Shown: positions 1,860 through 16,623 of the stretch, in pieces
Numbering within the stretch: position 1 is the first letter of the stretch
Layout of the letters: the number at the start of each line of letters is the position of its first letter
From: an uncultured Thermoprotei archaeon
Lineage (GTDB): Archaea > Thermoproteota > Thermoprotei > Thermofilales > B15-G2
Reading direction: 5' to 3'
DNA: 16,623 nt
Assembly (NCBI GenBank): GCA_965367815.1
Contig: CBDUKN010000031.1
Location: 1 to 16,623 of the forward strand
Translations under genes and position numbers: made by a program
The notes under the pieces: model-generated
Told to the model about the DNA's origin: nothing
Database searches by the model: none
What the model saw: the letters and a program-made list of their open reading frames with translations, nothing else

Positions 1860-1872
1860 GAAACATCAACTC

Positions 1873-1887
1873 GAAAAACTTATTTAG
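1873..1887 (+). promoter_or_regulatory. BRE/TATA promoter of tRNA-Phe
   Basis: GAAAAA-CTTATTTA lies about 23-35 nt upstream of the mature tRNA start. Confidence 0.6.
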
Positions 1888-1908
1888 TCTCTCTGAGAAA
1901 ATAATCAC

Positions 1909-1982
1909 GCCCCGGTAGCTCAGCCTGGGAGAGCATCCGGCTGAAGACCGGAGGGTCCCGGGTTCAAGTCCCGGCCGGGGCA
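1909..1982 (+). tRNA. trnF: tRNA-Phe(GAA), no intron, CCA not encoded
   Basis: Acceptor GCCCCGG/CCGGGGC plus discriminator A; anticodon arm TCCGG-CTGAAGA-CCGGA (GAA at 1943-1945, G37); T arm CCGGG-TTCAAGT-CCCGG; T-rich tract downstream. Confidence 0.98.
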
Positions 1983-2015
1983 CTACTTTTCCATAACCCA
2001 AACTTTCTCCGTGAC

Positions 2016-2029
2016 GAAAAGCTTATCTA
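2016..2029 (+). promoter_or_regulatory. BRE/TATA promoter of tRNA-Ala
   Basis: GAAAAG-CTTATCTA has the same architecture and spacing as the tRNA-Phe promoter. Confidence 0.6.
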
Positions 2030-2050
2030 TCACTCACGAAAACCAATTTT

Positions 2051-2156
2051 GGGCCGGTGGTGTAGCCTGGAGGCATGCCGCCCTTGCGAGCCTCTTCCCC
2101 AGAACTGCGCGGGCCAAGAGAGGCGGAGGACCCGGGTTCAAATCCCGGCCGGTCCA
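2051..2156 (+). tRNA. trnA: tRNA-Ala(UGC) with a 32-nt intron at canonical position 37/38
   Basis: Acceptor GGGCCGG/CCGGTCC carries the G3:U70 Ala identity pair, plus discriminator A. Anticodon stem CCGCC(2078-82)/GGCGG(2122-26); TGC at 2085-2087; T loop TTCAAAT. Confidence 0.97.
2089..2120 (+). other. tRNA intron with strict bulge-helix-bulge motif
   Basis: Central helix CUUG(2083-86)/CAAG(2115-18); 3-nt bulges CGA(2087-89) and AGA(2119-21); outer helix GCCU(2090-93)/GGGC(2111-14). Confidence 0.93.
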
Positions 2157-2223
2157 CTATTTCTCTTAATTTTTAGCTCTCACTTAAAGTAGTCTTAGGC
2201 GTTGCATCTTTAAAGAAAACTAG

Positions 2224-2278
2224 AATCAGCCCACCTGCCTTCTAATCATCAAGTCATTGCCGCCTGAGCTCATCACTC
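2224..2278 (-). ncRNA. C/D-box sRNA (2'-O-methylation guide)
   Basis: Minus strand reads C GTGATGA (2276-2270), guide GCTCAGGCGGCA, D' ATGA (2257-2254), C' TTGATGA (2252-2246), guide TTAGAAGGCAGGTGGG, D CTGA (2229-2226). TATTTAAG lies about 25 nt upstream and a T-rich tract follows. Confidence 0.88.
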
Positions 2279-2324
2279 AGCTTAATAAATATATTTTCTG
2301 GCTTAAATACTCAGTGGGGATTGT

Positions 2325-3317
2325 GTGAAAGTCCTAGTAACTGGGGCTACAGGCTTTATAGGAGGCCACCTGGTAGAAGACCTGCACAACAGAGGATATG
2401 ATGTAATTGCAATGGCCCGTAAGACAAGTAATATATCCAAGCTTAAGGAGCTAGGACTTGAGATAAGATTTGCTGATTTAACTGACCCCGCCAGCCTAGT
2501 TGAAGCTACTAAGGGAGTTGACGCTGTAATTCACCTAGCTGCATACTATACTTTCCATGGCAAAAAAGAGCTTTACTGGAAAGTAAACGTTGAGGGAACT
2601 AGGAGTTTAGTTGAAGCATGCCTAAAGAACGGCGGCACTCGTTTCATTTACTGTAGTACGACGGAGGCAGTGGGTCCCGTCAAAAATCCTCCTGCAACAG
2701 AAGATGTAGAGCCTAATCCTACATATGAGTACGGCAGATCTAAGCTAGCTGCAGAAAGAATAGTGAAAAGCTATGGCGAGAAAGGCTTGAAGTACACAAT
2801 ACTAAGGCCTTCAGGAGTTTACGGTCCTGGTAATGTTAACGATGTATCTTACTGGTTCATTACAGGTTTCGCGAAAAAGGCTCTCTGGTCATACTTTATA
2901 GTAGGCTCGGGTGAAACATTAATACAGTTTGTTCACGTGAAAGACGTTGTACAGGGGTTCAGACTAGCGTTAGAAAAAGAAGTATCTACTGGACAAACTT
3001 ACTTCATCACAGAGGATAGAGCTTATACTTATAATGAAGTATATAAAATTCTAGCAGAAATAGTAGGCAGAGATCCTCCTAAAATCCATGTTCCGCCTAT
3101 TCTAGCTAAACTGATGATATTCCCAGTAGAAGTAACGTACAAGATTTTTGGAAAGGAAAACTTCATGTGGCATGTCTCAACAGTAGATGCTGTAACTCAG
3201 CACCGAGCATACAGTATAGAGAAAGCTAAGCGAGAGTTAGGTTACAATCCTCAGTATGACTTGAGAAGAGGACTTAAAGAAACCGTCGAGTGGTATAAGC
3301 AGCATGGCTATATATAG
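2325..3317 (+). CDS. NAD-dependent epimerase/dehydratase (extended SDR)
   Basis: VTGATGFIG Rossmann motif, HLAA, NVEGT, catalytic YGRSK, LRPSGVYGPG, FVHVKDV. Confidence 0.93.
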   Translation: MKVLVTGATGFIGGHLVEDLHNRGYDVIAMARKTSNISKLKELGLEIRFADLTDPASLVEATKGVDAVIHLAAYYTFHGKKELYWKVNVEGTRSLVEACLKNGGTRFIYCSTTEAVGPVKNPPATEDVEPNPTYEYGRSKLAAERIVKSYGEKGLKYTILRPSGVYGPGNVNDVSYWFITGFAKKALWSYFIVGSGETLIQFVHVKDVVQGFRLALEKEVSTGQTYFITEDRAYTYNEVYKILAEIVGRDPPKIHVPPILAKLMIFPVEVTYKIFGKENFMWHVSTVDAVTQHRAYSIEKAKRELGYNPQYDLRRGLKETVEWYKQHGYI

Positions 3318-4087
3318 CCTGCTCTACTGTAATATTTTTCTAAAACTTTGTCATATTCTTTATCGTTTTTAATAGCTCTTATAACCTTTCTAATGTACTC
3401 GACCCAGTACTCTATAAGCTCTTTACCTTTCTGAGAAGAAGCTTTAAGAGGATTGCCTACGTAGCCTTCGGGAGCATATCTCTGCCAATCTACCATTGAT
3501 TCGACGTACTCTACGAGATACCTTTTGCCCAATTTTGCTTCTCTCTTTACGTTGTCTAGCTTAACTAAATGGGGCTTTAAGAAAAGCATTAAGCTAGTTT
3601 CTATCTCGCATGCATGTTCGTATACATCTGTTTCACGAATTTCATCTATTTTGTTTCTCAGAGGACCCAAGGTGTCTGCGAGAACATAAAGATTTCCCTT
3701 AAAACCCTTTTCCAGCATTTTCCTAACAAATAGTCTTAAAACACGCTTGTTACCTCCATGGCCGTTTAAAATCAATATTTTCTTGAATCCCTGCCTGTAC
3801 ACTTCTTCGACTATATCTTCAAGAAGTTTCATGAAGGTCTCTGACTTCAAACTAATAGTTCCAGGAAAATGTCTGTTTTCAGGAACATAAGCATAGTAAA
3901 GAGGAGGTAGAACTATAGCTCCCTCTTTTTCAGCGGCCTTTAAAGCTATATAGTATATTATCATAGTGTCTGTTCCTAAAGGAAGATGAGGTCCATGCAC
4001 TTCAATACTGCCTATAGGAACTATTACTACAGTAGTCTCTTTATCTACAGCGCCTATATCTTTTGAAGTAAGTTCTTCCCACTTCAT
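3308..4087 (-). CDS. Creatininase-family amidohydrolase
   Basis: PIGSIEVHGPHLPLGTD, FPGTISL, LNGHGGN, EHACEIETS, G.VGNP..AS..KG. Confidence 0.93.
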   Translation of the reverse strand: MKWEELTSKDIGAVDKETTVVIVPIGSIEVHGPHLPLGTDTMIIYYIALKAAEKEGAIVLPPLYYAYVPENRHFPGTISLKSETFMKLLEDIVEEVYRQGFKKILILNGHGGNKRVLRLFVRKMLEKGFKGNLYVLADTLGPLRNKIDEIRETDVYEHACEIETSLMLFLKPHLVKLDNVKREAKLGKRYLVEYVESMVDWQRYAPEGYVGNPLKASSQKGKELIEYWVEYIRKVIRAIKNDKEYDKVLEKYYSRAGYI

Positions 4088-4091
4088 TATT

Positions 4092-4886
4092 TCACTTGAG
4101 AGCAGAAATAGCCTTATCTATAAGCTCTTTTTTCAGAGAGGCAATTAGCGCTATTCCATTTCTCTCGTAAAGACTATAGTCAAGATCGTTACCATTTAAG
4201 TCCACAACATATCCTCCTGCTTCTCTAACGATGAAGACTCCTGCAGAAATATCGACCACTCTGAGAAAGCCTCTAACGTCGACAAATGCGTCAAAAGTTC
4301 CTAAACTAGTATAGCATAGCTCTAGTGCAGCAGAACCTAAAGTCCTTACTTTAGGCAGTCCTAGTCCATAGTATACTTTCATGAAGGGCTCTACAGAATT
4401 TTCATTGAAATAACCTGATATCATTAGAGCTTTAGGCACTTCTCTTGGCTCTAATGGTTTTTCGTTAACGTATACTCCTTGACCCTTTTCTGCACAGAAA
4501 ATATCTCCGCGGAAGACGTCCTTGACTACTCCGACAAATACGTTTTTTGAGCGAGGATTCTCAGAGTACTCTGCTACGGCAATAGATATAGACGTGAATG
4601 GAATTCCTTTGATAAAGTTGTATGAGCCGTCAAGCGGGTCAACTACAAAAATATATTGCGGATTATCTGTCCTCTTAATAATTCCTCTTTCTTCTGTAAT
4701 AACAACTGCGTCGTATTTTTCAAAAATGATGTTCACAATAAAGTCTTCTACAGTTTTATCGACTAAACGCGTATCGTCTCTTCCATGTTTGCCTACTATT
4801 CTCCACGATTCTTTGCTTGAGAACATTTTTAATGCCTTTTCAGCAGCCTGATTTGCTATGTTTTTTAAGTCATTTAAGAGACTCAT
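4092..4886 (-). CDS. suhB: Inositol monophosphatase / bifunctional IMPase-FBPase
   Basis: TEE, VVDPLDGSYNF, RTLGSAALEL, VDISAG..IVREAGG. A TATA-like CTTAAAA lies about 25 nt upstream. Confidence 0.92.
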   Translation of the reverse strand: MSLLNDLKNIANQAAEKALKMFSSKESWRIVGKHGRDDTRLVDKTVEDFIVNIIFEKYDAVVITEERGIIKRTDNPQYIFVVDPLDGSYNFIKGIPFTSISIAVAEYSENPRSKNVFVGVVKDVFRGDIFCAEKGQGVYVNEKPLEPREVPKALMISGYFNENSVEPFMKVYYGLGLPKVRTLGSAALELCYTSLGTFDAFVDVRGFLRVVDISAGVFIVREAGGYVVDLNGNDLDYSLYERNGIALIASLKKELIDKAISALK

Positions 4887-4924
4887 GAAATGAATTACAG
4901 AAATCGTGTTTTAAGTATATTGCT

Positions 4925-6220
4925 CTACTTCACTCTCTTCTCCTCTTCTTCCTGCCTAATTATTAAACCATATAGCTCGATTAAGCTCTTTGCCTGAGAA
5001 TAGAACTTAATTTTTCTCATAGTAGGTGCTTGCTCAAGAAGAGGATTTTTCTCCCCTCTGAGTAGTGCTTTAGAAATATTATCTAGTTTTTCTTTAAGTT
5101 CTTTAGTTTTTTCGACCTCATGGTAAGCTAGGTTCGTCCGTTCACCTGGATCTTTCTTTAACTTAAATAGCTGCATGTAGTCTTTCGGAATTCCGTCGGG
5201 AGTTTTCTCTAAATACACTATTAGCTTCCAGTCTCTTATCCTGAGGCCTATTGCTTTTTGCTGAGTATTTTCAAGTAGTACTACAGGTCTCTCTTCATCA
5301 CAGGCGTCTACAAGAGATTTTCCATCAATTTTTATTGGAGGCTTCACACCAGCTAACTCGTATATAGTATACGCTATGTCGACGTGCTGAACTAGGTCTT
5401 CACGTACATCCTTCTCTCCATTAGGAAGCCTCATGATTAAAGGAACTCTTGTAACATTATCATAGAGACCCTTATGTCCCATATAGTCTCCATGTTCTTG
5501 AAGATTTTCGCCGTGATCTGAGGTTATGAAAAGAACCGTGGACTCTAGAAGGTCTTTTTCTCGAAGAAAATCTATTAACTCACCTATCTTATCATCTACG
5601 TACCGTATTTCGCCGTCGTACTGCGATATAGCGTAGTCAAGGAGCTTCTCGTCTTCAGGAGGCTCTTTTTGCCAGAAAACTTTGTTATATGGTTTAGGCG
5701 GCCTATAAGGAGAGTGCGGGTCCCAGTAGTGGATAAACATGAAGAAAGGTTTTCTTCTATCTAGTAGTTCCTTGAGAACTTTAATTGAGTATTCTGTAAC
5801 ATCATCTGCTTGAACTTTCAGGCCTGCTTCGGGAGCAGGTATGCCTCCTGGATGACTGTATATGTGAAATCCTCTTGTAAACCACTTGTAGAAGTCGCCA
5901 TACTTCAAGAACATGTTGTCTACAGCACCTGTCACGTAGCCTTCTTTTCTCAAAACTTCTTGAACCATAGGAATATCTTCGCTTAACTGTGCTGAACCCA
6001 TATGAGTAACTATGCCGTGGCCTAGTGGATGTACTCCCGTGAGAATAGTAGTCCAAGCCGGGTGAGTAGGTATACCGTTAGCAAAGGCCCATTTAAAGAC
6101 AATACTTTCTTCAGCTATTTTATCTATATTCGGGCTTGTTTTTCTAACGTATCCATAGCAGGAAAGATGATCGGCTCTTAAAGTATCTATGCCTATTATG
6201 ATAAAATTATATTTTTCCAT
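4925..6220 (-). CDS. Sulfatase-like alkaline-phosphatase-superfamily hydrolase with Thr at the nucleophile position
   Basis: NFIIIGIDTLRAD, SPNIDK, PTHPAWTTILTG, HYWDPHSPY, YDGEIRYVD, TSDHGE, RVPLI, DPGE..NL. SD AGGGGG. Confidence 0.9.
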   Translation of the reverse strand: MEKYNFIIIGIDTLRADHLSCYGYVRKTSPNIDKIAEESIVFKWAFANGIPTHPAWTTILTGVHPLGHGIVTHMGSAQLSEDIPMVQEVLRKEGYVTGAVDNMFLKYGDFYKWFTRGFHIYSHPGGIPAPEAGLKVQADDVTEYSIKVLKELLDRRKPFFMFIHYWDPHSPYRPPKPYNKVFWQKEPPEDEKLLDYAISQYDGEIRYVDDKIGELIDFLREKDLLESTVLFITSDHGENLQEHGDYMGHKGLYDNVTRVPLIMRLPNGEKDVREDLVQHVDIAYTIYELAGVKPPIKIDGKSLVDACDEERPVVLLENTQQKAIGLRIRDWKLIVYLEKTPDGIPKDYMQLFKLKKDPGERTNLAYHEVEKTKELKEKLDNISKALLRGEKNPLLEQAPTMRKIKFYSQAKSLIELYGLIIRQEEEEKRVK

Positions 6221-6263
6221 GCCCCCTAAGTAAACGAGATTTCAGCAAATAAAAAACTATAGA

Positions 6264-7451
6264 CTAAACAATGCTTCTCTTCTTAGCTAAAGCTTTACTC
6301 GAGAAAGAGAGCTTCACTCCACTTTCTCTAGAAACTATTGATAGAATTTTCTCTCTCACGAATTCTCTTTCTTCAGGTCTAAGAACGGCTTTCTCATGAG
6401 CGCGGATCATTAAATAAGGATAGCCCTTACACATGAGGGCCTGAGCCAAAATAAATCGATGTATTTTTTGAACAAGGTTTTTATCCTTAGAAACCCATGT
6501 GGGGAACTCTACTCTGAGTATACTGTAACCTGTATTTAAGTAGAAAAAGGCTATTTTCTTTTCAAGAATACTCTTCTTAAGCACTTTATTGTGTTCAATA
6601 AATATTGATGAGCGCGCGCCGGGCCTTAGTACAAACGACATAAGTGTTTTATCCTCAACTACGCTTTTGCATAACTTAAGTATGCACGAGGAGCACGATT
6701 TTACTCGGCTGCAGTATACTCTAGTTAGAGTGTTTACAATAGACCTTGATCTAGTGAAATATACTGCTATAGGCACTAGTTTAAGGGGCCTCATTTTGCT
6801 AAATTCATCTTCTACTAGAGACAGCATGTATTCTCGATCATCTCTAGACCTTGAGCCGAGATAACTTAAAGAGAAAGATCTATCAAATAGAACTAGAGTC
6901 GCTGTATCAGAGGCGTAGGACTTTGCTATTTTACACTCTTCGCTGAAAGACCAAGCGTCTATATCAGCAGAAGTCATTAAGTATTTTACTCCTCTCTTTT
7001 CTACATAAACTTCATTGCCTATTCTAAGTATAGGTATACTATCCTCTATGTATTCTCCTTTTTCGTATGAGACATAAAAAGAGCCTATATTGAGTAAAGC
7101 AAAAGGCGGATCAATGTGGGGGTCAGGTTCAATCCAGCTACTATCAACTGCGACTGCAGTTGAATCACTGCATGCTTCTTTGAGAAATTCTGGATTTACT
7201 TCACTTAAAGGCTGATATTTTGTGTCAAATGGAACAGGTGGAGGAATATTCCAGAACCCCCATTCATCTGTTGGAATAGCTAAAGGCGATGTGTCTTCAC
7301 TTAAAATTACTTGCAACTCCTCTATTTCAGGAAGAGGCGAGCTAATAATGTCTAAGAGAGTTTTTAAACTTCGAGGATATCCTACATCCTTACTCGAAAT
7401 AAAGCGAGCCTTATGTCTGAGCTCTTTAATGAACTTAATTTGATCTAACAC
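6264..7451 (-). CDS. nurA: NurA-family nuclease
   Basis: AVAVDSS, VLFDRS, FFYL....ILRVEFP, GYPYLMIRAHEKAV (NurA GYP...AH motif). Confidence 0.85.
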   Translation of the reverse strand: MLDQIKFIKELRHKARFISSKDVGYPRSLKTLLDIISSPLPEIEELQVILSEDTSPLAIPTDEWGFWNIPPPVPFDTKYQPLSEVNPEFLKEACSDSTAVAVDSSWIEPDPHIDPPFALLNIGSFYVSYEKGEYIEDSIPILRIGNEVYVEKRGVKYLMTSADIDAWSFSEECKIAKSYASDTATLVLFDRSFSLSYLGSRSRDDREYMLSLVEDEFSKMRPLKLVPIAVYFTRSRSIVNTLTRVYCSRVKSCSSCILKLCKSVVEDKTLMSFVLRPGARSSIFIEHNKVLKKSILEKKIAFFYLNTGYSILRVEFPTWVSKDKNLVQKIHRFILAQALMCKGYPYLMIRAHEKAVLRPEEREFVREKILSIVSRESGVKLSFSSKALAKKRSIV

Positions 7452-7476
7452 TAAAAGATAGTAGCTAGGCCAAGAG

Positions 7477-7509
7477 ATATAACTATCACTTGTTAAGTGA
7501 AAGTTATAT
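7477..7509. promoter_or_regulatory. Palindromic back-to-back BRE/TATA promoters for nurA and the MBL gene
   Basis: ATATAACT-A-TCACTT-GTT-AAGTGA-A-AGTTATAT. Each arm supplies TTATAT about 23-31 nt before a start codon (7451 minus, 7532 plus). Confidence 0.7.
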
Positions 7510-7531
7510 ACTAAGATACGAATACTAAATC

Positions 7532-8176
7532 ATGGTAATCGTTAAATGGCATAGACACGCTTGTTTTGAAATAAGAGGTAGTAGTGTAACCGTAGTAATA
7601 GATCCTCATGACGGAGCATCGCTTGGTATAGCTCCCCCGTCATGTAAAGGAGACGTAATTCTAGTAACGCACGATCACTTCGACCACAATGCGGTAAGTA
7701 TAGTAGCTAAGCCAGATTCCGAGATCTTAGTAATGCTTAGAGGAGAAAAAACAGTAAAAGGAGTTTATGTAAAAGGAATAAAAACTTATCACGATAAATT
7801 TGAAGGAAGACAGAGAGGAGAAAATACGGTATACCTGTTTATAGTAGATGGTATAAGATTTGCTCACCTAGGAGACTTAGGCCATGTTCTCAATGAAAGC
7901 GAAATAAAAGAGCTAGGTGAAGTAGACGTTCTCTTCATACCTGTCGGAGGAACCTATACTATCGGAGCGAAAGAAGCAGCAGAAATCGTAAATAAGCTTT
8001 CACCAAAATTAGTGATGCCAATGCATTACAAGATTCCCGGACTAGAGTTACCTTTATCTGAAGTAGATAAGTTTGCATCGAAATTCGAGAAAGTAGAGGA
8101 AAAGCCTAATGAAGTAGAGGTAACAAAAGAAAATCTCCCGGAGCCCGTAACAATATGGGTGTTGTCGCCAGAATAA
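7532..8176 (+). CDS. Metallo-beta-lactamase-fold hydrolase (COG2220/UPF0173-like)
   Basis: WHRHACF, IDPH, THDHFDH, HLGD, IPVGG.YT, PMHY. Confidence 0.92.
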   Translation: MVIVKWHRHACFEIRGSSVTVVIDPHDGASLGIAPPSCKGDVILVTHDHFDHNAVSIVAKPDSEILVMLRGEKTVKGVYVKGIKTYHDKFEGRQRGENTVYLFIVDGIRFAHLGDLGHVLNESEIKELGEVDVLFIPVGGTYTIGAKEAAEIVNKLSPKLVMPMHYKIPGLELPLSEVDKFASKFEKVEEKPNEVEVTKENLPEPVTIWVLSPE

Positions 8177-8204
8177 TCTAAATACTTCTTAGCTCTAAGT
8201 AACT

Positions 8205-8265
8205 AGGGGATGAAGACTGCACGTCAGGGGCTTATTGATGGCCTAATTGGTCTTTGCGGACCCCT
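8205..8265 (+). ncRNA. C/D-box sRNA with degenerate boxes and two guides antisense to 23S rRNA
   Basis: C GGGATGA (8207-13), guide AGACTGCACGTCAGGGG, D' CTTA (8231-34), C' TTGATGG (8235-41), guide CCTAATTGGTCTTTG, D CGGA (8257-60). The guides are complementary to the LSU motifs CUGACGUGCA and AAAGACCAAU (recalled, not in window). TATA-like TCTAAATA at 8177-8184. Confidence 0.75.
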
Positions 8266-8525
8266 CGACTAAACATGTTGTCTAATTCTTTTTTGAGTAA
8301 CTCTATTAAATATCCTTCTTCTCCCGGAACTCCTTTAAAAACGAATTTATCGTTTATATAGACTTCAGGCATATCGTCTCTACTTTTATCTTCAATTAAA
8401 CTTACTTCAATACTATACTCTTCTTCCAAGAGATCTTTGATGTAAAGTATCCAGTCTCTTACGGTTTGATACCAGTAGCCTCCATCGCCCTTAATCTTAA
8501 TGTATATACGTGAAACTGAGGGCAT
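8232..8525 (-). CDS. Small acidic hypothetical protein, probable thioredoxin-like fold without Cys
   Basis: MPEVYINDKFVFKGVP resembles the cis-Pro beta hairpin of the Trx fold. SD AGGGAG. Confidence 0.7.
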   Translation of the reverse strand: MPSVSRIYIKIKGDGGYWYQTVRDWILYIKDLLEEEYSIEVSLIEDKSRDDMPEVYINDKFVFKGVPGEEGYLIELLKKELDNMFSRGVRKDQLGHQ

Positions 8526-8602
8526 ATTTTCTCCCTTTCTTTAGGTAAATTGCATCGGAGTTATAACAGTAAGCTTATTATATACCGGAGTAAATAAACT
8601 CT

Positions 8603-10111
8603 GTGAAGGTAAAAAGGATAGATATTTCTCTTGGAGGCTCAAAAATTGTAATATTTAATGAGAAGGATGCTATTAGGCTTGGTTTAAAGCCTTATGACAG
8701 AGTTAAAGTAGTTAGTGAGTCGGGAAAATCTATTACAGCGTCGGTTAGTATTACTAGGACATTTATTAATGAAGGAGAAATAGGTGTTTTAAAGGAAGTT
8801 GGAGAAAGTCTTGGAGTAAAAGAAGGAGATGAGGTAAAAGTCGTACTCGCACCTCATCCTGCTTCCTGGCAGTTTATACGGAAAAAGCTTAAGGGAAATA
8901 AGTTAACAAGAGACGAAATATACTATATTATCAGAGATGTTGTTTCAGGAGAGTTAAGCGAACTAGAAATCGCTGCTTTTCTGTTAGCAGAGTACTTTCA
9001 TGGAATGAGTATAGACGAAATAGTTTATATGATAGAGGCTATGGTCGAAACAGGGGTCAGGATAGAGTTTGAAGAAACAGTATACGACATTCATAGCATA
9101 GGCGGTGTACCAGGAAATTCTAAAGTTGCTTTAATAGAAGTACCTGTTGTCGCTGCTACAGGACTACTTATTCCAAAGACCAGTAGCAGAGCTATAACAA
9201 GCCCAGCAGGCACCGCTGATACTATGGAGGTTCTAGCGAATGTTAGTTTTAAAGCAGATGAAATAAGGGAAATGGCTCTAAAAGCTAGGGGACTGATATG
9301 CTGGGGTGGGATTCTCGGATTGGCGCCGGCCGATGACATTTTCATAAAAGTAGAGCATCCTCTTCAAATAGATCCTCCGTCTCAGATGATAGCAAGTATT
9401 TTGGCGAAAAAAGTGGCCATGGGAGTCAAGTACCTAGTAATAGATATTCCCACGGGCAAGGGTACAAAAGCTCCTACAAGAGAGTATTCTGAGAAGCTGG
9501 CTAGACTATTTCTTGATGTAAGCGAGAAACTGAACATAACGCTTAGATGTGCTATCACTTACGGAGGCCAGCCTATTGGTTACAGCGCAGGCCCGGCTCT
9601 CGAGGCCAGAGAAGCTATAGAGGCTTTGCAAAACAAGCGTGGTGCTATGAGCGTTATTGATAAAGCACTTTCGCTAGCAGGCTTAATATTCGAGATGGCT
9701 GGTCTTGAAGCAAAAGGTAAAGGATATGACTTAGCTAAGGAGATATTTAGGTCAGGTAAGGCATGGGAGAAAATGAAGCAGATAATTGAAGTACAGGGAG
9801 GCGACCCGAATATAAAGCCTGAAGATATTCCAGTAGGCGGTAAGAGAATTAGAATAGAGTCTCCTGTCGACAGCTATGTGACTCATGTAGACAATACAGC
9901 TATTACTTTGATAGCTAGAGCCGCTGGAGCCCCAATAGACAAAGGAGCGGGTGTAGCAATATTCGTTAAAGCAGGCCATAAAGTTAAGAAAGGGGATCCT
10001 CTCATAGAGATTTACGCTGAGAGAGAATCGAAGTTAACGGAGGCATATAATCTGGCGCTTAAACTTAAGCCTGTTACTCTAGAAGGAATGCTGCTGAAGA
10101 CTATTCCATGA
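8603..10111 (+). CDS. deoA: AMP phosphorylase (archaeal NMP phosphorylase, thymidine phosphorylase family)
   Basis: N-terminal extension of about 80 aa, DIHSIGGVPGN, PKTSSRAITSPAGTADTMEVL, LAPADD, ASILAKK, QPIG...GPALEARE, ARAAGAPIDKGAG. Confidence 0.96.
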   Translation: MKVKRIDISLGGSKIVIFNEKDAIRLGLKPYDRVKVVSESGKSITASVSITRTFINEGEIGVLKEVGESLGVKEGDEVKVVLAPHPASWQFIRKKLKGNKLTRDEIYYIIRDVVSGELSELEIAAFLLAEYFHGMSIDEIVYMIEAMVETGVRIEFEETVYDIHSIGGVPGNSKVALIEVPVVAATGLLIPKTSSRAITSPAGTADTMEVLANVSFKADEIREMALKARGLICWGGILGLAPADDIFIKVEHPLQIDPPSQMIASILAKKVAMGVKYLVIDIPTGKGTKAPTREYSEKLARLFLDVSEKLNITLRCAITYGGQPIGYSAGPALEAREAIEALQNKRGAMSVIDKALSLAGLIFEMAGLEAKGKGYDLAKEIFRSGKAWEKMKQIIEVQGGDPNIKPEDIPVGGKRIRIESPVDSYVTHVDNTAITLIARAAGAPIDKGAGVAIFVKAGHKVKKGDPLIEIYAERESKLTEAYNLALKLKPVTLEGMLLKTIP

Positions 10112-11319
10112 AGAAAGTAATTAGAGACCCTGTTCACGGAAATATAGAACTAGATGAGTTAGATTTAGCTATAATAGACTCTGAGCCCTTCCAGAGATTA
10201 CGAGGAATAAAGCAGCTAGGCTTAGTTCACTTAGTTTTTCCTGGAGCTACTCACACAAGGTTTGAACATTCTATCGGTGTACGCTACTTGGCCGAGGAAA
10301 TATTTACTACAGTAAATTCTAGGGAAAGCATTTTCTCCGAAGAAGACTTTAATAAACTGAAGGCAGCAGCCCTGCTCCATGATATTGCGCATACAGCTTT
10401 TTCCCATGTACTAGAGGAAGTCGTTAAAGAAGAGGGAGTTTCTCATGAAGAAATGTCGGAGAGAATCATTAACGGAACTGAGCTTAAAGATATTTTGGGA
10501 GATTATGGTCTTCGAGTAAAAGATGTCGTTGATATCATTAAGGGTAAAGAAGGGCCTTTATCGCAAATAGTTAAAAGCGACTTAGACGCCGATAGACTCG
10601 ACTATCTTCAGCGCGACGCATATTACTGTGGTGTAGCATACGGTGTAATAGATTCCCGCATACTGAGAGAATTTACTGTAGTAAATGATACTTTAGCTGT
10701 AAGTGAGAAGGGACTTTACCCTGCAGTAACAGTTCTTTTTGCCAGGCATACAATGTTTACTGTCGTATACGGTCACAAAACCTCGAGAGCCGCTACTTGT
10801 ATGTTAGTCAAAGGAGTGCGTAGGGCATTAGAAGAAGGAGTTATTTCTTTTGATGAATTGTTTAGGCTTACTGATGAAGAGCTTCTTATAAAGCTCCGAG
10901 ACTCGAGAGTAAGCTATTGTCGAGAAATTGCAGAGAGAATTAGAAGAAGAAAATTGTTTAAAATGGCTTATCAGCTTAGAGGAGATATTCTTTCAGTGGA
11001 CACGATACTGGAGTTTGTTTTTCTCAAAGAAAATGTTTTAGAGAAGCAAAAGCTTGAGGAAAGTATAGCTGAGAAAGCCGGAGTGCATGTAGGCTACGTG
11101 GCCTTAGATATTCCGGAAAACCCGGTGCTAGAGGAAGCTAATGTCAAGATTTATACTGAAGAAGGGTTGAAGGATATTAAGGAGCTTTCACCTATAGCGA
11201 AGACTTTAACTGATGCTTATACCTTTTCGTGGAGCGTAGCTGTATTTACCCTAGAGGAACATAGGTCTATTGTAAGAGATGCTGCAAAAGAAGTCTTGAG
11301 AAAATTTATCAAGATTTAG
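10108..11319 (+). CDS. HD-domain phosphohydrolase (COG1078, SAMHD1/dNTP triphosphohydrolase-like)
   Basis: RDPVHG, FQRLRGIKQLG...VFPGATHTRFEHSIG, LHDIAH, HEE, DADRLDYLQRD, VYGHK. ATGA overlap with AMP phosphorylase. Confidence 0.93.
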   Translation: MKKVIRDPVHGNIELDELDLAIIDSEPFQRLRGIKQLGLVHLVFPGATHTRFEHSIGVRYLAEEIFTTVNSRESIFSEEDFNKLKAAALLHDIAHTAFSHVLEEVVKEEGVSHEEMSERIINGTELKDILGDYGLRVKDVVDIIKGKEGPLSQIVKSDLDADRLDYLQRDAYYCGVAYGVIDSRILREFTVVNDTLAVSEKGLYPAVTVLFARHTMFTVVYGHKTSRAATCMLVKGVRRALEEGVISFDELFRLTDEELLIKLRDSRVSYCREIAERIRRRKLFKMAYQLRGDILSVDTILEFVFLKENVLEKQKLEESIAEKAGVHVGYVALDIPENPVLEEANVKIYTEEGLKDIKELSPIAKTLTDAYTFSWSVAVFTLEEHRSIVRDAAKEVLRKFIKI

Positions 11320-12422
11320 AATAGTTCTCTTTCGAAGGAAGTTAGTACTTGGCAACCTTTCTCTGTGACTACTACCATGTCTTCTATGCGGACTCCTCCT
11401 ACTCCAGGTATATAAACTCCGGGCTCTACAGTAACGACCATGTTTTTCTTTAAAATATCTTTTGAAGTGGCGCCTAGAGCAGGTTTTTCGTGTATCTCGA
11501 TTCCTACTCCGTGGCCTAAACTGTGGACAAAGAACTTTGCTAAGCCCTTTTCCTTCAAATAATCTCTAGCGACTTTATCTACTTCGCTACACGGCTTACC
11601 TTCAGCTATAGCTTCTATTGCTTTCTTCTGAGCTTCGAGTACCGAGTAAAGTATTTCTCTTATTTTCCCTCGAGGTTTACCGATGTACAGTGTCCTAGTC
11701 ATATCAGCACAGTATCCATTAATTCTAGCTCCAAGATCTATTACAACGAGGTCTCCTTCGGTAATTTTCCTTTCCGATGGAGTAAAGTGTGGATAAACAG
11801 AGTTTTCTCCCGAAGCAACTATGGGCTCAAATGACGGGGATCCTTCAGAATAGATTACTCTAGCTATTTCAGCAGCTATTTCTCTTTCACTTACTCCGAC
11901 GTCAATTACTTCAATAGCTTTTCTCATAGCTCTTTCAGTAACTTTTACTGCTTTCATAATGAACTCTAACTCAACTTCATCTTTGATAGCTCTCATAGAT
12001 GTTATGACTTCAGTAAAGTCTACCAATGACTCTATTCTGATGTTCTTTTTTATAATCTCTTCAAGTTTAGGTGTAGGAGCCTCTATTCCGATGTTCTTGG
12101 CTTCAAGTTCTTCTAGTAAAAGGCATATAGCTTTCTCAGTAGTATCGGCATAAACAGGCTTTTCGTCTACTTTAAGAGGAGTACCCCTTAGCGCATGTAC
12201 CCTTATGTCTTTGACGTAAGAAGTGGCTTTAGCTCTCTCGTATTCAAGTCTACTTGTAAGTAAAATAGGGTCTCTGTCTACCGGGATAAAGAGTGTTCCA
12301 CCGCCTTCGAATCCAGTGAAGTAGAAAATATTTGGTGCACTTCTAACAATAATTACGCCAAGATTTTTCTTAGATGCTTCTTCTCTTATTTTACGCAGTC
12401 TTCTATCATAAATATAGCTCAC
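11316..12422 (-). CDS. Xaa-Pro aminopeptidase/dipeptidase (M24B)
   Basis: RAIKD..E, IDLG, GYCADMTRT, HSLGHGVGIEIHE.P, EPGVY, GVRIED. Confidence 0.95.
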   Translation of the reverse strand: MSYIYDRRLRKIREEASKKNLGVIIVRSAPNIFYFTGFEGGGTLFIPVDRDPILLTSRLEYERAKATSYVKDIRVHALRGTPLKVDEKPVYADTTEKAICLLLEELEAKNIGIEAPTPKLEEIIKKNIRIESLVDFTEVITSMRAIKDEVELEFIMKAVKVTERAMRKAIEVIDVGVSEREIAAEIARVIYSEGSPSFEPIVASGENSVYPHFTPSERKITEGDLVVIDLGARINGYCADMTRTLYIGKPRGKIREILYSVLEAQKKAIEAIAEGKPCSEVDKVARDYLKEKGLAKFFVHSLGHGVGIEIHEKPALGATSKDILKKNMVVTVEPGVYIPGVGGVRIEDMVVVTEKGCQVLTSFERELF

Positions 12423-12464: not shown

Positions 12465-13145
12465 CTAGGAGAAAGAATGGGCTGAAATACCGATTATCTT
12501 AAGAATATCTCTTAAATCATATATGACTGGAACATCGTATTTTTTGTTAGTGTTAAGGTCTCTAACTATTATTACGACATCTATTCCAGCAGCTTTTGCG
12601 CATTCCACGTCGTAAGCACTATCGCCTACATATAAAGCCTCCTTAGGGGTTACTTGAAGTCTGCTTACTGTGTCGAGAAGATGCCGTGGATCAGGCTTAG
12701 GGTACTCTACGTCATCTCTGCATAGAATAACGTCAATCAAGTCAAATATACCAATTTTTCTCAGTGTTTGGTAAGCTATACTACGGCTACTAAATGTACA
12801 TATACCTATTTTAATAGAATTGTCTTTGAGAGATTTAATGACTTCCTTAGCGTGGGGATCAGGTTTAAAGAATTTCTGTGCATATACACCGTACTCGTCT
12901 ATTATTTCGTCAGCTATCTGAGTAACCTTGGCTTTCATCAAAGCATTGTTTTTGAAAAATTCTCGTGCAAGAAAACGCATTCTATATAAAAAATCGTCAG
13001 GTTTAAGAATATTCTCGAGTCTTTTGTCAAATGAAACTAACGCGTTATATAACCTGAGCTTATACTGCATGTATACCTCCTTGTTAGGAAATCTGCCAAC
13101 AGTAAGTGTTCCGTCTAAATCGAATATTACTGCTTTCTTATGCAT
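12465..13145 (-). CDS. HAD-superfamily phosphatase (phosphoglycolate phosphatase-like)
   Basis: IFDLDGTL, GICT, KPDP, VGDSAYD..CAKAAG. SD AGGAGG; 8-nt overlap with the ASCH gene. Confidence 0.92.
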   Translation of the reverse strand: MHKKAVIFDLDGTLTVGRFPNKEVYMQYKLRLYNALVSFDKRLENILKPDDFLYRMRFLAREFFKNNALMKAKVTQIADEIIDEYGVYAQKFFKPDPHAKEVIKSLKDNSIKIGICTFSSRSIAYQTLRKIGIFDLIDVILCRDDVEYPKPDPRHLLDTVSRLQVTPKEALYVGDSAYDVECAKAAGIDVVIIVRDLNTNKKYDVPVIYDLRDILKIIGISAHSFS

Positions 13146-13764
13146 GATCGCCTCCTATTAAATCATAGAAAATATCTTTATTGCTATTCGATACCTTTAT
13201 TATATTTTTATTTATCAAGATTTTGAGTGCCTTTCTTACTACTCTTCTTAGTTCTCTTCTATTATCTACTCTACCATATAAATTTAGTGACGCTTTTCTC
13301 AGACTACCTGTTCTACTAATTTCTTCTAATAATTCTTTTTCTCGTTCAGATAAGTCTAAATTATATCTTAATGCTAATCTAGCTATATCTACTGGAGAAA
13401 GCCCTAGGTACACATCGCTGTCGCTTACTCCGTAAAGAACGTTTTTTATCTTAAGTTCTATAATTGTAACCCATTCTTTTGGATTTATTTTACCGTAGGT
13501 TTTCTTAAGTTCTTTTAATAGCTCTTGAAGGCTTTTGAATCCATCTTTTTTAGCATCTTCATCTGTCAAATCTTTTACTTTTTTATACTTCACGCTAACT
13601 ATTTCAGCTTTTGCTATAACTTTGCCTCCGCTATGAATGAATACTTCCTTGTACTTTGGTCTAACTATACCTCTTCTAATAGTAGTTGTCTTCTGTCCCT
13701 TGAGTAGCATTCCTATATATCTCCATTTGAGTGTAAGGTGGCGGCCCAAGTATATTGGCTTCAT
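13138..13764 (-). CDS. ASCH-domain protein with C-terminal HTH-like domain
   Basis: ASCH signature G.KTTTIR, DLTDEDAKKDGF.S..EL...L...Y. The C-terminal LSEREKELLEEISRTGSLRKASLNL resembles a ModE/LysR-type HTH. Confidence 0.88.
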   Translation of the reverse strand: MKPIYLGRHLTLKWRYIGMLLKGQKTTTIRRGIVRPKYKEVFIHSGGKVIAKAEIVSVKYKKVKDLTDEDAKKDGFKSLQELLKELKKTYGKINPKEWVTIIELKIKNVLYGVSDSDVYLGLSPVDIARLALRYNLDLSEREKELLEEISRTGSLRKASLNLYGRVDNRRELRRVVRKALKILINKNIIKVSNSNKDIFYDLIGGDHA

Positions 13765-13888
13765 TTAATCACTCTCCATGAAATAAATTGGTCTAAAATA
13801 TAATCGTATTGTTCTACGTTTTCCTACGACTGCCTAACGTTTACATCACTTTACTCAACTATTTATTTTTAGTTCTCTCAATAATCAC

Positions 13889-14932
13889 GTGTCTGAAAGT
13901 AAAATTGTCGCGCTTAAAATCCTATTGAGAATATATGTGGTTGCCATAATACTGTACATTGTTGTCAAACTTATTGCTATTGTCACAGAAGAAGTTCTAG
14001 TACAGGAATATGTCTTGGAGTACTTTATGCTAGGCTTACTTTTCCTAATAATATCTGTCTTTATTTCATTCCCTGAAACTAGAACACTTATCTATGGCTA
14101 TAGTAGAGTAGGCTGCGTAAAATACTACTTATCTCAGCTGGCTATCTACTTGATCATCTGTTCTCTTATTTTACATTACTTGTCTAGAATTCTCGCCGTA
14201 AACCTTGTTGATTTAAGGCTTGTCTTTTGGATACTTTGTGGTATTTTTGGCACAATTATCTTTAGTGACATAGTTATTAAAGAAAAGAAAGTATTTGCTT
14301 TCAAAGAACTGAAGTTAAGGCCTATTAAGGCACTTAGATTACCTAGATTTAAGCGATTAAGGCTAGACAGTGATATTCAATTGAAGCTTAAAACAGAGAG
14401 CATAGTGTTGATTCTTGACGGCGATTACAAAGGAGTATGTATTTACGGTGATAGCCGCTTGCACATAGATTCTCTCTTTTATTCGTTTGGAGCATTACCT
14501 AAAAGGAGACTACGAGGATTTACTCTAGTAATTTCTAGGAAAATAAATATACCTGAAGATGCTGAAGAGCTAGAAGAAAGCGAGGCTAAAAGCTACATAG
14601 ATGATTCTATGGAGCAGGTAAACGTCTTAAATAAAGTTATAAAGAGAGTTAGGGAGCTTATAGAAGAAGAGGTGCATAGAAGAGCTGTAATAGCTGCAGA
14701 GGAAAGCGACGATATTAAAGTATTTAAGCTATGGAGGCTTTACGCTATAGAAGACAGGTACTATAGGCTTAAAGTAGTGAATTTAGGCGGTCTTCACGTA
14801 AGTGAAATTAAGTGGATAATAATGCTGAGAGACTCTAGAGCTATACTGCTCAAACACAGTGACGGCTATATGATAATTAAATGTAAGTTAGGTTTCCCTA
14901 AGAAGGTGAAAGAAGATGAGCATAGGAGTTAA
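13889..14932 (+). CDS. Hypothetical membrane protein with 4 N-terminal TM helices and a soluble domain of about 215 aa
   Basis: Four hydrophobic segments within residues ~6-130, followed by a charged region. GTG start with AT-rich TATTTATT about 22-29 nt upstream. Confidence 0.8.
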   Translation: MSESKIVALKILLRIYVVAIILYIVVKLIAIVTEEVLVQEYVLEYFMLGLLFLIISVFISFPETRTLIYGYSRVGCVKYYLSQLAIYLIICSLILHYLSRILAVNLVDLRLVFWILCGIFGTIIFSDIVIKEKKVFAFKELKLRPIKALRLPRFKRLRLDSDIQLKLKTESIVLILDGDYKGVCIYGDSRLHIDSLFYSFGALPKRRLRGFTLVISRKINIPEDAEELEESEAKSYIDDSMEQVNVLNKVIKRVRELIEEEVHRRAVIAAEESDDIKVFKLWRLYAIEDRYYRLKVVNLGGLHVSEIKWIIMLRDSRAILLKHSDGYMIIKCKLGFPKKVKEDEHRS

Positions 14933-15281
14933 GGAAATACGCGGACTGTTTTTCAGAATTGCGCTCTTCCTTTTTGCAGTATACATTTTAGCTAAAATAA
15001 CAGGGTTCTATGAAAACTGGGTCGAGTATACTCCTTTCTTAGCACTGCTTTTCTTTGCCTTAAGTATTCTAACTTACGGTCTTAAAGGAAGTCCAGTGAA
15101 GAAGGCTCAAAGTATAGCATACAGGCTTGGAGGTTTCCTATTTTTAATATGGCTATACATGGTCCTAGCAAAAATAAAATATTTTCAGCTGTTTTCACTT
15201 ACTATAACATCGCCTCAAGTATTCTGGGCTTCAGTATTCCTATTCGGATTAGGCTTTGTTCTAGGAGCTCTTGAAAGGTGA
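14916..15281 (+). CDS. Small 4-TM membrane protein, paralogous to the N-terminal domain of the upstream ORF
   Basis: GGTGA SD at 14905-14909; overlaps the upstream gene by 17 nt; shares RI-x7-YI-x2-K and VFW-x5-FG motifs. Confidence 0.82.
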   Translation: MSIGVKEIRGLFFRIALFLFAVYILAKITGFYENWVEYTPFLALLFFALSILTYGLKGSPVKKAQSIAYRLGGFLFLIWLYMVLAKIKYFQLFSLTITSPQVFWASVFLFGLGFVLGALER

Positions 15282-15287
15282 TAATAA

Positions 15288-15749
15288 TTGCTTTCAGAGA
15301 ACCTAAAGAGGGCTCTTCTTAAACTTTATGTAAATTACTGCTTTAATAGCATAAAAAAGAAGGATCCGAGAGCATTTGAGGTAGTTAAAAGAGGAGTAAA
15401 GAAAAAGATTATATTGTGTCTACTGAGACATGGAAACGAGTGGATGAGTATTTCTGAAGTAGCTAGAGAAATAAAGGTGAGCAAAGCTACTGTACAAGAT
15501 CACTTAGAAGTAATGTTGCGTGAAGGAGTGTTAGAAGACATGAGGATAATGAATAGAAGGCTTTTTAAGATTAAAGACGAGGTTTTTTCGCCTTTCCCAC
15601 CTCTACTTGATATTGCTCTAGTTCTCTCTTCGCTAGTGTTTTTCTCTCTATATGTGTTTTATGAGAGAGAAATTCTTCTCGGTCTTGCTTTGGGCACGAT
15701 TTTCTCTCTTATATTAGCAAAGGTATTAGAGAAAGTGGAACTTGCATAA
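15288..15749 (+). CDS. Winged-HTH (ArsR-like) regulator with a C-terminal two-TM anchor
   Basis: KKIILCLL...MSISEVAREIKVSKATVQDHLEVMLREGVL...RRLFKI followed by two hydrophobic helices. GGTGA SD at 15277-15281 before TTG. Confidence 0.85.
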   Translation: MLSENLKRALLKLYVNYCFNSIKKKDPRAFEVVKRGVKKKIILCLLRHGNEWMSISEVAREIKVSKATVQDHLEVMLREGVLEDMRIMNRRLFKIKDEVFSPFPPLLDIALVLSSLVFFSLYVFYEREILLGLALGTIFSLILAKVLEKVELA

Positions 15750-15787
15750 AGTTTAAGAGAGACCTTCAGTTGTAGGTATTTGAGTAA

Positions 15788-16623
15788 ATGAGTTCAGTTT
15801 TAAAGGGAATTGAAGCAAAACATAGGTTCTTTAGGAACATAAAGAAGCCTGTCCGCTTTATCAGCGGAGTTCATGTCATAGCTGTCATGGTTAAGCCGAG
15901 GCAGTGTCCTCACGGAAGATGTCTTTATTGTCCTGGAGGAGTCGAGCTAGGTTCTCCTCAATCCTATGTGCCAGATAGCCCCGCTGTGGCCAGAGCAATT
16001 CCGCTAAACTATGATCCCTATGAACAAGTCAAATGCAGAATCAAGGCTTATGAGGCGATGGGACACACAGTGAGCAAAGTAGAGTTAATAGTCATGGGAG
16101 GGACTTTTCTGGCGTATCCTAGCGATTACCAAGAGTGGTTTATAGTAATGTGTCTTAAAGCTATGAACGATTATCCTCACTTCAGAAAAGGTCCTAAGAA
16201 AGTGAGCTTATCTAGAGAGCAGGTTCGAAACGAGCAAGCTAAAATAAGGTGTGTTGGCCTGACTATAGAAACTCGTCCCGACTGGTGTAAAGAAGAACAT
16301 GTAGACCGTATGCTGTACTTAGGTGCAACTCGCTGCGAAATAGGAGTTCAAACTATTTATGACGAGATTCTTGAGAAAGTAGAGCGCGGGCATACCGTAG
16401 AAGACTCTATTAAAGCTACACAGCTGCTGAAAGATGCGGCTTATAAGGTCTGCTACCACCTGATGCCCGGACTTCCTGGCTCAGACCTAGATAAAGACTT
16501 AGAGATGTTTAAAACAGTATTTAGCGACGAGAGATTTAAGCCAGATTACCTCAAAATATATCCTACACTTGTCATACCTTCATCGAAGTTATATGAGCTG
16601 TGGAAAAGAGGTCTATACAAGCC
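15788..16623 (+). CDS. elp3: Elp3 radical SAM tRNA uridine(34) acetyltransferase, truncated at window end
   Basis: Absent from the ORF track because it has no stop in the window. Reads MSSVLKG...KKPVRFISGVHVIAVMVKPRQCPHGRCLYCPGG...PQSY...KVELIVMGGTF...GLTIETRPD...EIGVQT...RGH...HLMPGLPG...PDYLKIYP. Confidence 0.95.
   Translation, partial: MSSVLKGIEAKHRFFRNIKKPVRFISGVHVIAVMVKPRQCPHGRCLYCPGGVELGSPQSYVPDSPAVARAIPLNYDPYEQVKCRIKAYEAMGHTVSKVELIVMGGTFLAYPSDYQEWFIVMCLKAMNDYPHFRKGPKKVSLSREQVRNEQAKIRCVGLTIETRPDWCKEEHVDRMLYLGATRCEIGVQTIYDEILEKVERGHTVEDSIKATQLLKDAAYKVCYHLMPGLPGSDLDKDLEMFKTVFSDERFKPDYLKIYPTLVIPSSKLYELWKRGLYK

Follow-up and report, generated by a model that had tools for sequence, protein, structure and literature searches.

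A candidate membrane-tethered one-component regulator encoded with two orphan membrane proteins in a single clade of uncultured Thermoprotei

Contig CBDUKN010000031.1 of the uncultured Thermoprotei archaeon GCA_965367815.1 (order Thermofilales) carries a compact cassette of three genes that all encode integral membrane proteins. We analysed the first 16,623 nucleotides (nt) of this contig, referred to as the window, and focus on the cassette, whose members we call genes 1, 2 and 3 together with their products (Table 1). Gene 3 combines an ArsR-type winged helix-turn-helix (wHTH) with a hairpin of two transmembrane (TM) helices, and genes 1 and 2 encode 4-TM proteins of no recognised family. 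With a probability of roughly 40%, we favour the interpretation that the cassette encodes a one-component regulator that is specific to this lineage, tethered to the membrane and accompanied by accessory membrane proteins, and that would sense an intramembrane or cytoplasmic cue. What is new here is that promoter comparison shows a 14-nt element that the cassette shares with an ABC-2 exporter operon and that the sister species retains in both promoters. The conserved motif suggests that gene 3 may control an export pump of the drug type in addition to its own genes.

The same three genes are present in three species-level lineages, namely the window together with a metagenome contig that is 98-99% identical (L017), L018, and L016/L002/L019, which represent one organism or nearly so. 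In codon alignments, the amino acid (aa) identity of genes 1, 2 and 3 is 63%, 75% and 75% to the second lineage and 46%, 65% and 69% to the third. The proportion of non-synonymous differences (pN) is far below that of synonymous differences (pS) in every lineage pair and for all three genes, and the corresponding rate ratios (dN/dS) range from 0.10 to 0.23 for gene 1, from 0.08 to 0.10 for gene 2 and from 0.09 to 0.12 for gene 3. All three open reading frames (ORFs) are real genes under purifying selection (dN/dS about 0.1). Their GTG, ATG and TTG start codons, respectively, are kept in the three lineages.

The tight coupling of the three same-strand ORFs that the initial annotation had described was recovered in full, with a 17-nt overlap of genes 1 and 2 (14916-14932), a gap of 6 nt between genes 2 and 3 (15282-15287) and GGTGA ribosome-binding motifs ahead of genes 2 and 3. 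The overlap itself is not conserved. It is replaced by an 18-nt gap in one lineage and by a short gap in another, the latter presuming the ATG start picked in the codon alignment. Despite the lost overlap, the tight packing of the cassette is kept in all lineages. Gene 1 has no GGTGA ahead of its GTG start and a conserved TATA-like TATTTATTTTT (13860-13870) lies 19-29 nt upstream; hence, the leaderless start proposed earlier fits. The TATA-like box falls in a 22-nt block (13848-13869) that is invariant across all aligned sequences, and it is probably the promoter element of the cassette. No terminator-like site was found across 13700-15900. Among 18 sequencing runs that contain all or part of 13600-15900, none is recorded as RNA. 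The Elp3 gene follows gene 3 after only 38 nt (15750-15787), and transcriptional read-through from the cassette into Elp3 is conceivable.

Gene 3 matches the Pfam family HTH_5 (PF01022, ArsR) over residues 41-83 (E 5.3e-07), where its 29.9 bits exceed the cut-off of 22, and its profile aligns with the ArsR-family structure YgaV (3cuo) at E 7e-4. The wHTH spans residues 26-100 approximately and is followed by a 5-residue linker (101-105) and two TM helices (106-124 and 129-147) that are joined by an outside loop of 4 residues, which bears out the earlier description as a wHTH with a C-terminal TM hairpin. We detected no sensor domain in gene 3, in which 5 residues alone separate the wing from the first TM helix in a total length of 153 aa. 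Across the three lineages, 62 of 75 residues of the wHTH (26-100) are invariant (83%) compared to 5 of 19 and 6 of 19 in the two TM helices. The wHTH is far more invariant than the TM helices, suggesting that the DNA-reading part is the constrained part of gene 3. The hairpin keeps a GxxxG patch (G132, G136), in the conserved stretch E128-x-LLG-xx-LG, despite its low conservation.

Gene 3 does not fall into a characterised ArsR subfamily. It stays below the cut-off for ArsR/SmtB metalloregulators (NCBIfam NF033788; 22 bits against 55). Metalloregulators feature a CxC motif; by eye, gene 3 has no such motif ahead of the HTH and a single conserved cysteine, Cys44. The best NCBIfam match is the SdpR subfamily NF033789 (E 2.1e-05), yet with 24.3 bits against a cut-off of 100, gene 3 is, by this profile score, not a member. 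Its Pfam matches are of the ArsR/MarR/IclR type, and no OmpR-type match reached the cut-off. A protein search with gene 3 returned 3 close clusters only (72 candidates).

The promoter region divergent to a gene encoding an ASCH-domain protein provides a clue to a possible target. We aligned the 124-nt spacer from the three species and the near-identical contig (4 sequences). Three blocks are conserved in this otherwise diverged spacer, which are the TATA-like boxes of both divergent genes and a central CTACGTTTTCCTAC. Together with CTAA at position 13834, CTACGTTTTCCTAC forms three CTAC-like units with 10-nt spacing. The initial annotation had proposed this region (13765-13888) for a DNA-binding test, and it does contain a strongly conserved candidate operator. 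In its degenerate form, CTACGTTTYCCTAC, the element matches the 2.45-Mb genome exactly at just two sites, at no site with one mismatch and at 42 sites with two. The two exact copies are intergenic, and the share of the genome free of long ORFs is only 13.7%. The second copy (contig C15, 33494-33507) comprises the last two of three CTAC units, again with 10-nt spacing, and is located 58 nt 5' of the ATG of a DrrA-type ABC ATPase (ABC_tran and DrrA1-3_C). This ATPase (344 aa) belongs to an ABC-2 exporter operon (contig C15, about 33484-36205; L049/L100) in which two multi-TM permease-like genes of 281 and 279 aa come after it. Both exact sites are thus found in promoter regions, 50-75 nt from the start codons.

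The sister species has both copies at the orthologous positions, in spacers that have otherwise diverged, and in the ABC promoter a 27-nt block holding the element is identical save one base. Across the 41 genomes of the order, CTACGTTTYCCTAC occurs twice in each of the two cassette bearers (G000 and G001) and once in 1 of the 39 others. This lone copy outside the cassette bearers (G016, another family) lies within a 155-aa ORF, and the reversed control of CTACGTTTYCCTAC was found in none of the 41 genomes. Orthologues of the ABC ATPase elsewhere in the order share 58-72% identity, and in all 12 orthologous promoters examined from cassette-lacking genomes the best match has at least 5 mismatches (a thirteenth locus with only 12 nt of upstream sequence was dropped). 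All 41 genomes of the order encode the ASCH protein, so it is the cassette that the element tracks rather than the ASCH gene. When its letters were permuted 400 times, a genome had 0.07 hits on average, and a single permutation reached two or more. With up to two mismatches, the exact-letter form has 37 sites compared to 18 for the reversed control, and 11 of the 42 two-mismatch sites of the degenerate form are intergenic. This intergenic excess is only mild and therefore we claim no regulon beyond the two promoters. A third site with one mismatch, upstream of a 463-aa gene in the sister species, was rejected as it is not conserved in the window genome.

Kyte-Doolittle scans yield four hydrophobic segments for gene 1, four for gene 2 and two for gene 3, so the three products are membrane proteins, as had been proposed. 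Gene 2 has no match at all in Pfam, NCBIfam, PHROGs or PADLOC, all of which were searched up to E 1 for genes 1 and 2, and its profile search returned 3 clusters only (3211 candidates). The last TM helix of gene 2 is invariant in 18 of 21 positions (86%) and carries a GxGxxxG motif. A kinship of DUF131 with gene 2 or with the gene 3 hairpin was considered and rejected (hhalign probability 0.2% or less).

For gene 1, the four TM segments were correctly called in the initial annotation, but a soluble tail of 217 aa (residues 131-347) was overlooked; it is rich in lysine and arginine (K/R) and makes up more than half of the protein. Gene 1 has no match in NCBIfam, PHROGs or PADLOC, and its sole Pfam match is the sub-threshold DUF6458 (E 0.25, 12.1 bits against 27). 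Among 5.8 billion proteins, gene 1 retrieved two clusters, itself and a relative with 63% identity (4393 candidates scored). A three-sequence profile retrieved only itself from 1.84 billion representatives and reached at best E 1.3 against PDB sequences. For genes 1 and 2, the statement that they belong to no known family thus holds in the family libraries and in large protein sets. Structure prediction of full-length gene 1 gave an unusable model (predicted local distance difference test score, pLDDT, of 47), and the ESM Atlas contained no usable match to the whole protein or to residues 135-347. Modelled alone, the C-terminal domain reached a pLDDT of 72.1 and a predicted template modelling score (pTM) of 0.72, with five models spanning 29-72. 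It is predicted to consist of a helix of ~40 residues that links two beta-rich parts. Searches with this model gave nothing above background, with a best Foldseek match to the PDB at E 6.7e-3 with a template modelling score of 0.2 or less, a best VIA-align Z of 5.3 (LptA) among 48,161 chains, where the stated noise is 7-8, and nothing in BFVD. An MscS-like arrangement, with TM helices followed by a small beta domain, was dropped because there is no Pfam match and no such chain among the best 50 VIA-align matches. The initial annotation had also proposed a duplicated 4-TM module forming a heterodimer of like units; the N-terminal part of gene 1 and gene 2 do not support this (BLASTP E 2.1, hhalign probability 1%).

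According to the positive-inside rule, counts of lysine plus arginine place both ends of genes 1 and 2 in the cytoplasm. The gene 1 tail is also predicted to be cytoplasmic, with 12 K/R within its first 30 residues. As for the predicted outside loops, gene 1 has two of 8 and 7 residues, gene 2 has two of 9 and 15, and gene 3 has a single one of 4. Hence, no cassette protein is predicted to have an ectodomain, and 15 residues at most would be exposed outside in any loop. This makes an external ligand-binding sensor unlikely and speaks against sensing of an external cue via an ectodomain; input would rather come from the membrane or the cytoplasm. On this simple hydropathy model, the cue is most likely intramembrane (a lipophilic compound, the membrane state or partner occupancy) or cytoplasmic.

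Full-length matches to each of the three proteins are found in only two of the 41 genomes of the order, the window genome and its one congener. The remaining matches are short, weak (E 7.8e-4 to 9e-3) or interrupted by stop codons, with the exception of one wHTH-only match at 1.1e-5, and those to gene 3 cover the wHTH alone. When 401 genomes of the phylum were sampled, 36 contained a match to the gene 3 profile with E 1e-4 or better, again in the wHTH only. The 28 matching ORFs extracted from this sample encode 91-128 aa and none contains a hydrophobic segment. As judged from these genomes, the trio is restricted to one genus-level clade of uncultured Thermoprotei and its members always occur together. 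In all three lineages, a HAD hydrolase gene and the ASCH-domain gene on the minus strand precede the cassette, and Elp3 follows. Of 23 other genomes of the order whose DNA ahead of Elp3 was read (L022-L044), none carries the trio. Sixteen have an ORF of 190-250 aa directly before or overlapping the Elp3 start (translations read by eye), of which one scanned example is a Methyltransf_11 protein. In this comparison, the cassette is a clade-specific occupant of the pre-Elp3 position.

Taken together in the interpretation that we favour, the three genes would constitute one operon for a membrane-embedded regulatory module. Gene 3 would be a one-component transcription factor, its wHTH facing the cytoplasm and held by a minimal 2-TM hairpin. 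Because gene 3 has no sensing domain, genes 1 and 2 are taken as suppliers of the input. They might serve as input or modulator parts that act on gene 3 by helix packing in the membrane or via the cytoplasmic domain of gene 1, and candidate contact surfaces are, in gene 2, the near-invariant helix with GxGxxxG and, in gene 3, the GxxxG patch. Gene 3 would bind CTAC-N6-CTAC at its own divergent promoter and at the copy before the ABC-2 exporter operon, and a cue would in this way be coupled to autoregulation and to export. A bolder form of this idea, which we consider unlikely as a whole, is that an intramembrane-sensing system was born in one Thermoprotei genus. Here, the two orphan 4-TM proteins would gate the hairpin-anchored ArsR-type factor, which would bind DNA while still in the membrane, and the own operon and the exporter would be switched via a gained CTAC-repeat operator. 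Such a system would be an archaeal, non-homologous counterpart of SdpRI and CadC-LysP.

Several points weigh against a tethered regulator with membrane partners. Co-transcription, binding of gene 3 to the motif and contacts among the three proteins are features that we infer, and the same applies to the kind of cue and to the direction of regulation. The permutation control overstates the significance of the element since the motif was set after the first copy had been seen and the degenerate Y after the second. Moreover, all cassette lineages form one clade, so that the motif tracking the cassette counts as a single evolutionary observation. The ASCH protein or another factor could bind the element instead of gene 3. 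ArsR-family proteins usually bind inverted repeats as dimers, whereas the element reads as direct CTAC repeats. The hairpin of gene 3 is poorly conserved, as would be expected of a passive anchor more than of a specific interface for signalling. A look at the gene neighbourhood, as recommended earlier, found the trio together in all three species-level lineages, but this adds little because the lineages are close and fully syntenic, and in such genomes the co-occurrence may simply reflect the synteny of the region as a whole.

Under the main rival explanation, genes 1 and 2 have a membrane function of their own and would form a small transporter, a channel or a structural complex. Gene 3 would then be a co-transcribed local regulator outside any signalling complex, with an anchor that merely keeps it near its products. 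We regard this as possible but doubtful. The last TM helix of gene 2 is invariant in 18/21 positions compared to 5/19 and 6/19 in the TM helices of gene 3, which locates the constrained membrane surfaces in gene 2 and not in the anchor, as this explanation would have it. Regulator-plus-cargo operons are common, and a second operon of the same genome (L011) ends in an ArsR-type wHTH gene after genes for Yip1-family and single-pass proteins. However, the four libraries yielded no transporter or channel family for genes 1 and 2, and a pair of 4-TM proteins whose loops do not exceed 15 residues is small for a transporter. Furthermore, an independent membrane function leaves unexplained why a membrane hairpin was gained in this clade only, given that TM helices are found in 0 of the 28 nearest wHTH relatives in the phylum sample.

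Two further explanations dispense with transcriptional control by gene 3. It might tether DNA to the membrane for chromosome or extrachromosomal positioning or for DNA handling, with genes 1 and 2 as the platform. The wHTH is five residues away from the hairpin, which would hold a DNA-binding domain very close to the membrane, and an array of three units at 10-nt spacing could equally serve anchoring. We consider such a tether very unlikely, as the genome has only two exact sites, both at the 50-75 nt from start codons that represent gene-regulation geometry, and as partition, replication and DNA-uptake genes were not found near the cassette. Least credible to us is an origin of the cassette from a mobile element or virus, of which it would be a leftover in the manner of archaeal 'dark matter' islands, playing no regulatory part in the host. 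Thermophile dark-matter islands are summarised as rich in lineage-specific membrane proteins (PMC4158269), and the narrow distribution of the cassette, its faster divergence compared to neighbours (ASCH identity 97% and 81% against 63% and 46% for gene 1) and the methyltransferase gene that other families of the order carry at the pre-Elp3 position would agree with such an origin. Yet, the cassette occupies the same housekeeping-flanked position in three lineages whose synonymous sites are saturated. The window contains no integrase, transposase, repeat boundary or other mobile-element gene, the overall content of guanine and cytosine (GC) and that of third codon positions (GC3) resemble the neighbours, genes 1 and 2 have no PHROGs match, and a dN/dS of about 0.1 indicates that function is maintained.

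Returning to the tethered-regulator interpretation, the cassette would belong with the membrane-bound one-component regulators, built here with two orphan protein families. That such regulators exist had been noted in the initial annotation and agrees with the published outline of ArnR (PMC6396743). ArnR and ArnR1, the archaellum regulators of Sulfolobus acidocaldarius, are the nearest archaeal precedent in terms of described features. ArnR is a one-component regulator bound to the archaeal membrane, in which an HTH forms the N-terminal part and two TM helices lie at the C-terminus (PMC6396743). Gene 3 likewise comes from the Thermoproteota and has an N-terminal HTH (41-83), predicted to be cytoplasmic, and two C-terminal TM helices. 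Moreover, ArnR is proposed to act on promoter boxes while membrane-bound (PMC6396743), as we suggest for gene 3. In contrast to gene 3, the HTH and TM helices of ArnR are separated by a HAMP-like and a sensing domain, and the portion of the source cited here describes it with no co-transcribed orphan membrane partners (PMC6396743). Unlike in the case of ArnR, no archaellum or pilus genes are found near the cassette. In titles and abstract openings of the literature, we found no membrane-tethered ArsR-type archaeal factor with the architecture of gene 3.

The closest analogue of the proposed mechanism is bacterial. CadC is a membrane-held wHTH protein whose activity is set together with the polytopic permease LysP and does not involve phosphorylation, according to the source summary (PMC3096576), and thus pairs a wHTH at the membrane with a separate polytopic partner. 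Genes 1 and 2, unlike LysP, belong to no known permease family. The ToxR-like receptors, including ToxR and CadC, are summarised as bacterial proteins with an OmpR-type wHTH, a single TM helix and a large periplasmic sensor (PMC3096576). Gene 3 lacks these features as it is ArsR-type and has two TM helices, a 4-residue outside loop and no sensor domain. In the SdpR-SdpI system of Bacillus subtilis, an ArsR-family autorepressor is described in brief as being sequestered at the membrane by a polytopic signal transducer (PMC2910880). The cassette resembles it in encoding an ArsR-type regulator and multi-pass membrane protein in one operon. As far as that description goes, SdpR is soluble and captured on signal, whereas gene 3 would be permanently anchored, and genes 1 and 2 have no Pfam match to SdpI. 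As the defining features of both the SdpR-SdpI and the ToxR-like families are lacking, we place the cassette apart from them.

The sequences most closely related to the gene 3 wHTH are soluble ArsR-type proteins of only 91-128 aa from other Thermoproteota, which align with gene 3 residues 27-100 approximately. In one genus, these soluble relatives (96-97 aa) are preceded by two co-oriented DUF131 (PF01998) 2-TM genes at 5 of 7 loci (L056, L060, L061, L062 and L064), which is the same order of membrane genes followed by a wHTH gene as in the cassette. In several other lineages, the soluble wHTH gene adjoins a small gene that is putatively Sec61-beta-like by eye.

Signal transduction in Thermoproteota is poorly understood and few membrane-bound one-component regulators have been described (ArnR/ArnR1). 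The locus would represent a minimal version, in which a wHTH on a bare hairpin presumably receives its input from small membrane proteins encoded separately. A concrete pair of candidate targets is also at hand, the own promoter and the ABC-2 exporter promoter, with their common 14-nt element. A widely conserved exporter operon may thus have been rewired in one clade by the gain of an operator and a new regulator. The weight of these considerations is limited by the uncultured organism, a family drawn from three species-level lineages and the inferred status of binding and signal.

Table 1. Features of the cassette and its promoter region (positions refer to the window)
Feature	Position	Strand	Details
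Gene 1	13889..14932	+	347 aa, GTG start; 4 TM (about 15-130) and 217-aa tail
Gene 2	14916..15281	+	121 aa, ATG start; 4 TM, predicted N-in/C-in
Gene 3	15288..15749	+	153 aa, TTG start; ArsR-type wHTH and 2-TM hairpin
GGTGA, ribosome-binding motif of gene 2	14905..14909	+	6 nt 5' of ATG at 14916
GGTGA, ribosome-binding motif of gene 3	15277..15281	+	6 nt 5' of TTG (15288); overlaps gene 2 stop codon
Divergent promoter region, ASCH-domain gene (minus)/gene 1	13765..13888	.	Conserved blocks in otherwise diverged spacer
TATA-like box TATTTATTTTT, probable cassette promoter	about 13860..13871	+	18-29 nt 5' of gene 1 GTG
CTACGTTTTCCTAC, candidate operator, 14 nt	13814..13827	+	Invariant in 4/4 aligned sequences

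The divergently transcribed ASCH protein (13138-13764, minus strand) has 208 aa with an N-terminal ASCH domain (E 7e-15), and its C-terminal part shows only a weak wHTH-like Pfam match (E 0.18). It shares the central conserved element with the cassette and is often present in two copies in the genomes of the order. The rest of the window (453-12422) has a housekeeping character, encoding PAPS-reductase-like, NAD epimerase, creatininase-family, inositol monophosphatase, sulfatase and NurA proteins as well as a metallo-beta-lactamase-fold protein, a nucleoside/AMP-phosphorylase-like protein, an HD-domain protein and an M24 peptidase. The ORFs at 60-440 and 8232-8525 have no Pfam match. The second membrane and wHTH operon of the genome (L011; contig C1, about 232716-235940) encodes a multi-TM protein of the Yip1 family (188 aa), a single-pass protein of 298 aa that has a repetitive beta-rich domain but lacks any Pfam match, and a soluble ArsR-type wHTH protein of 220 aa, and it has an orthologue in the sister species (L010).

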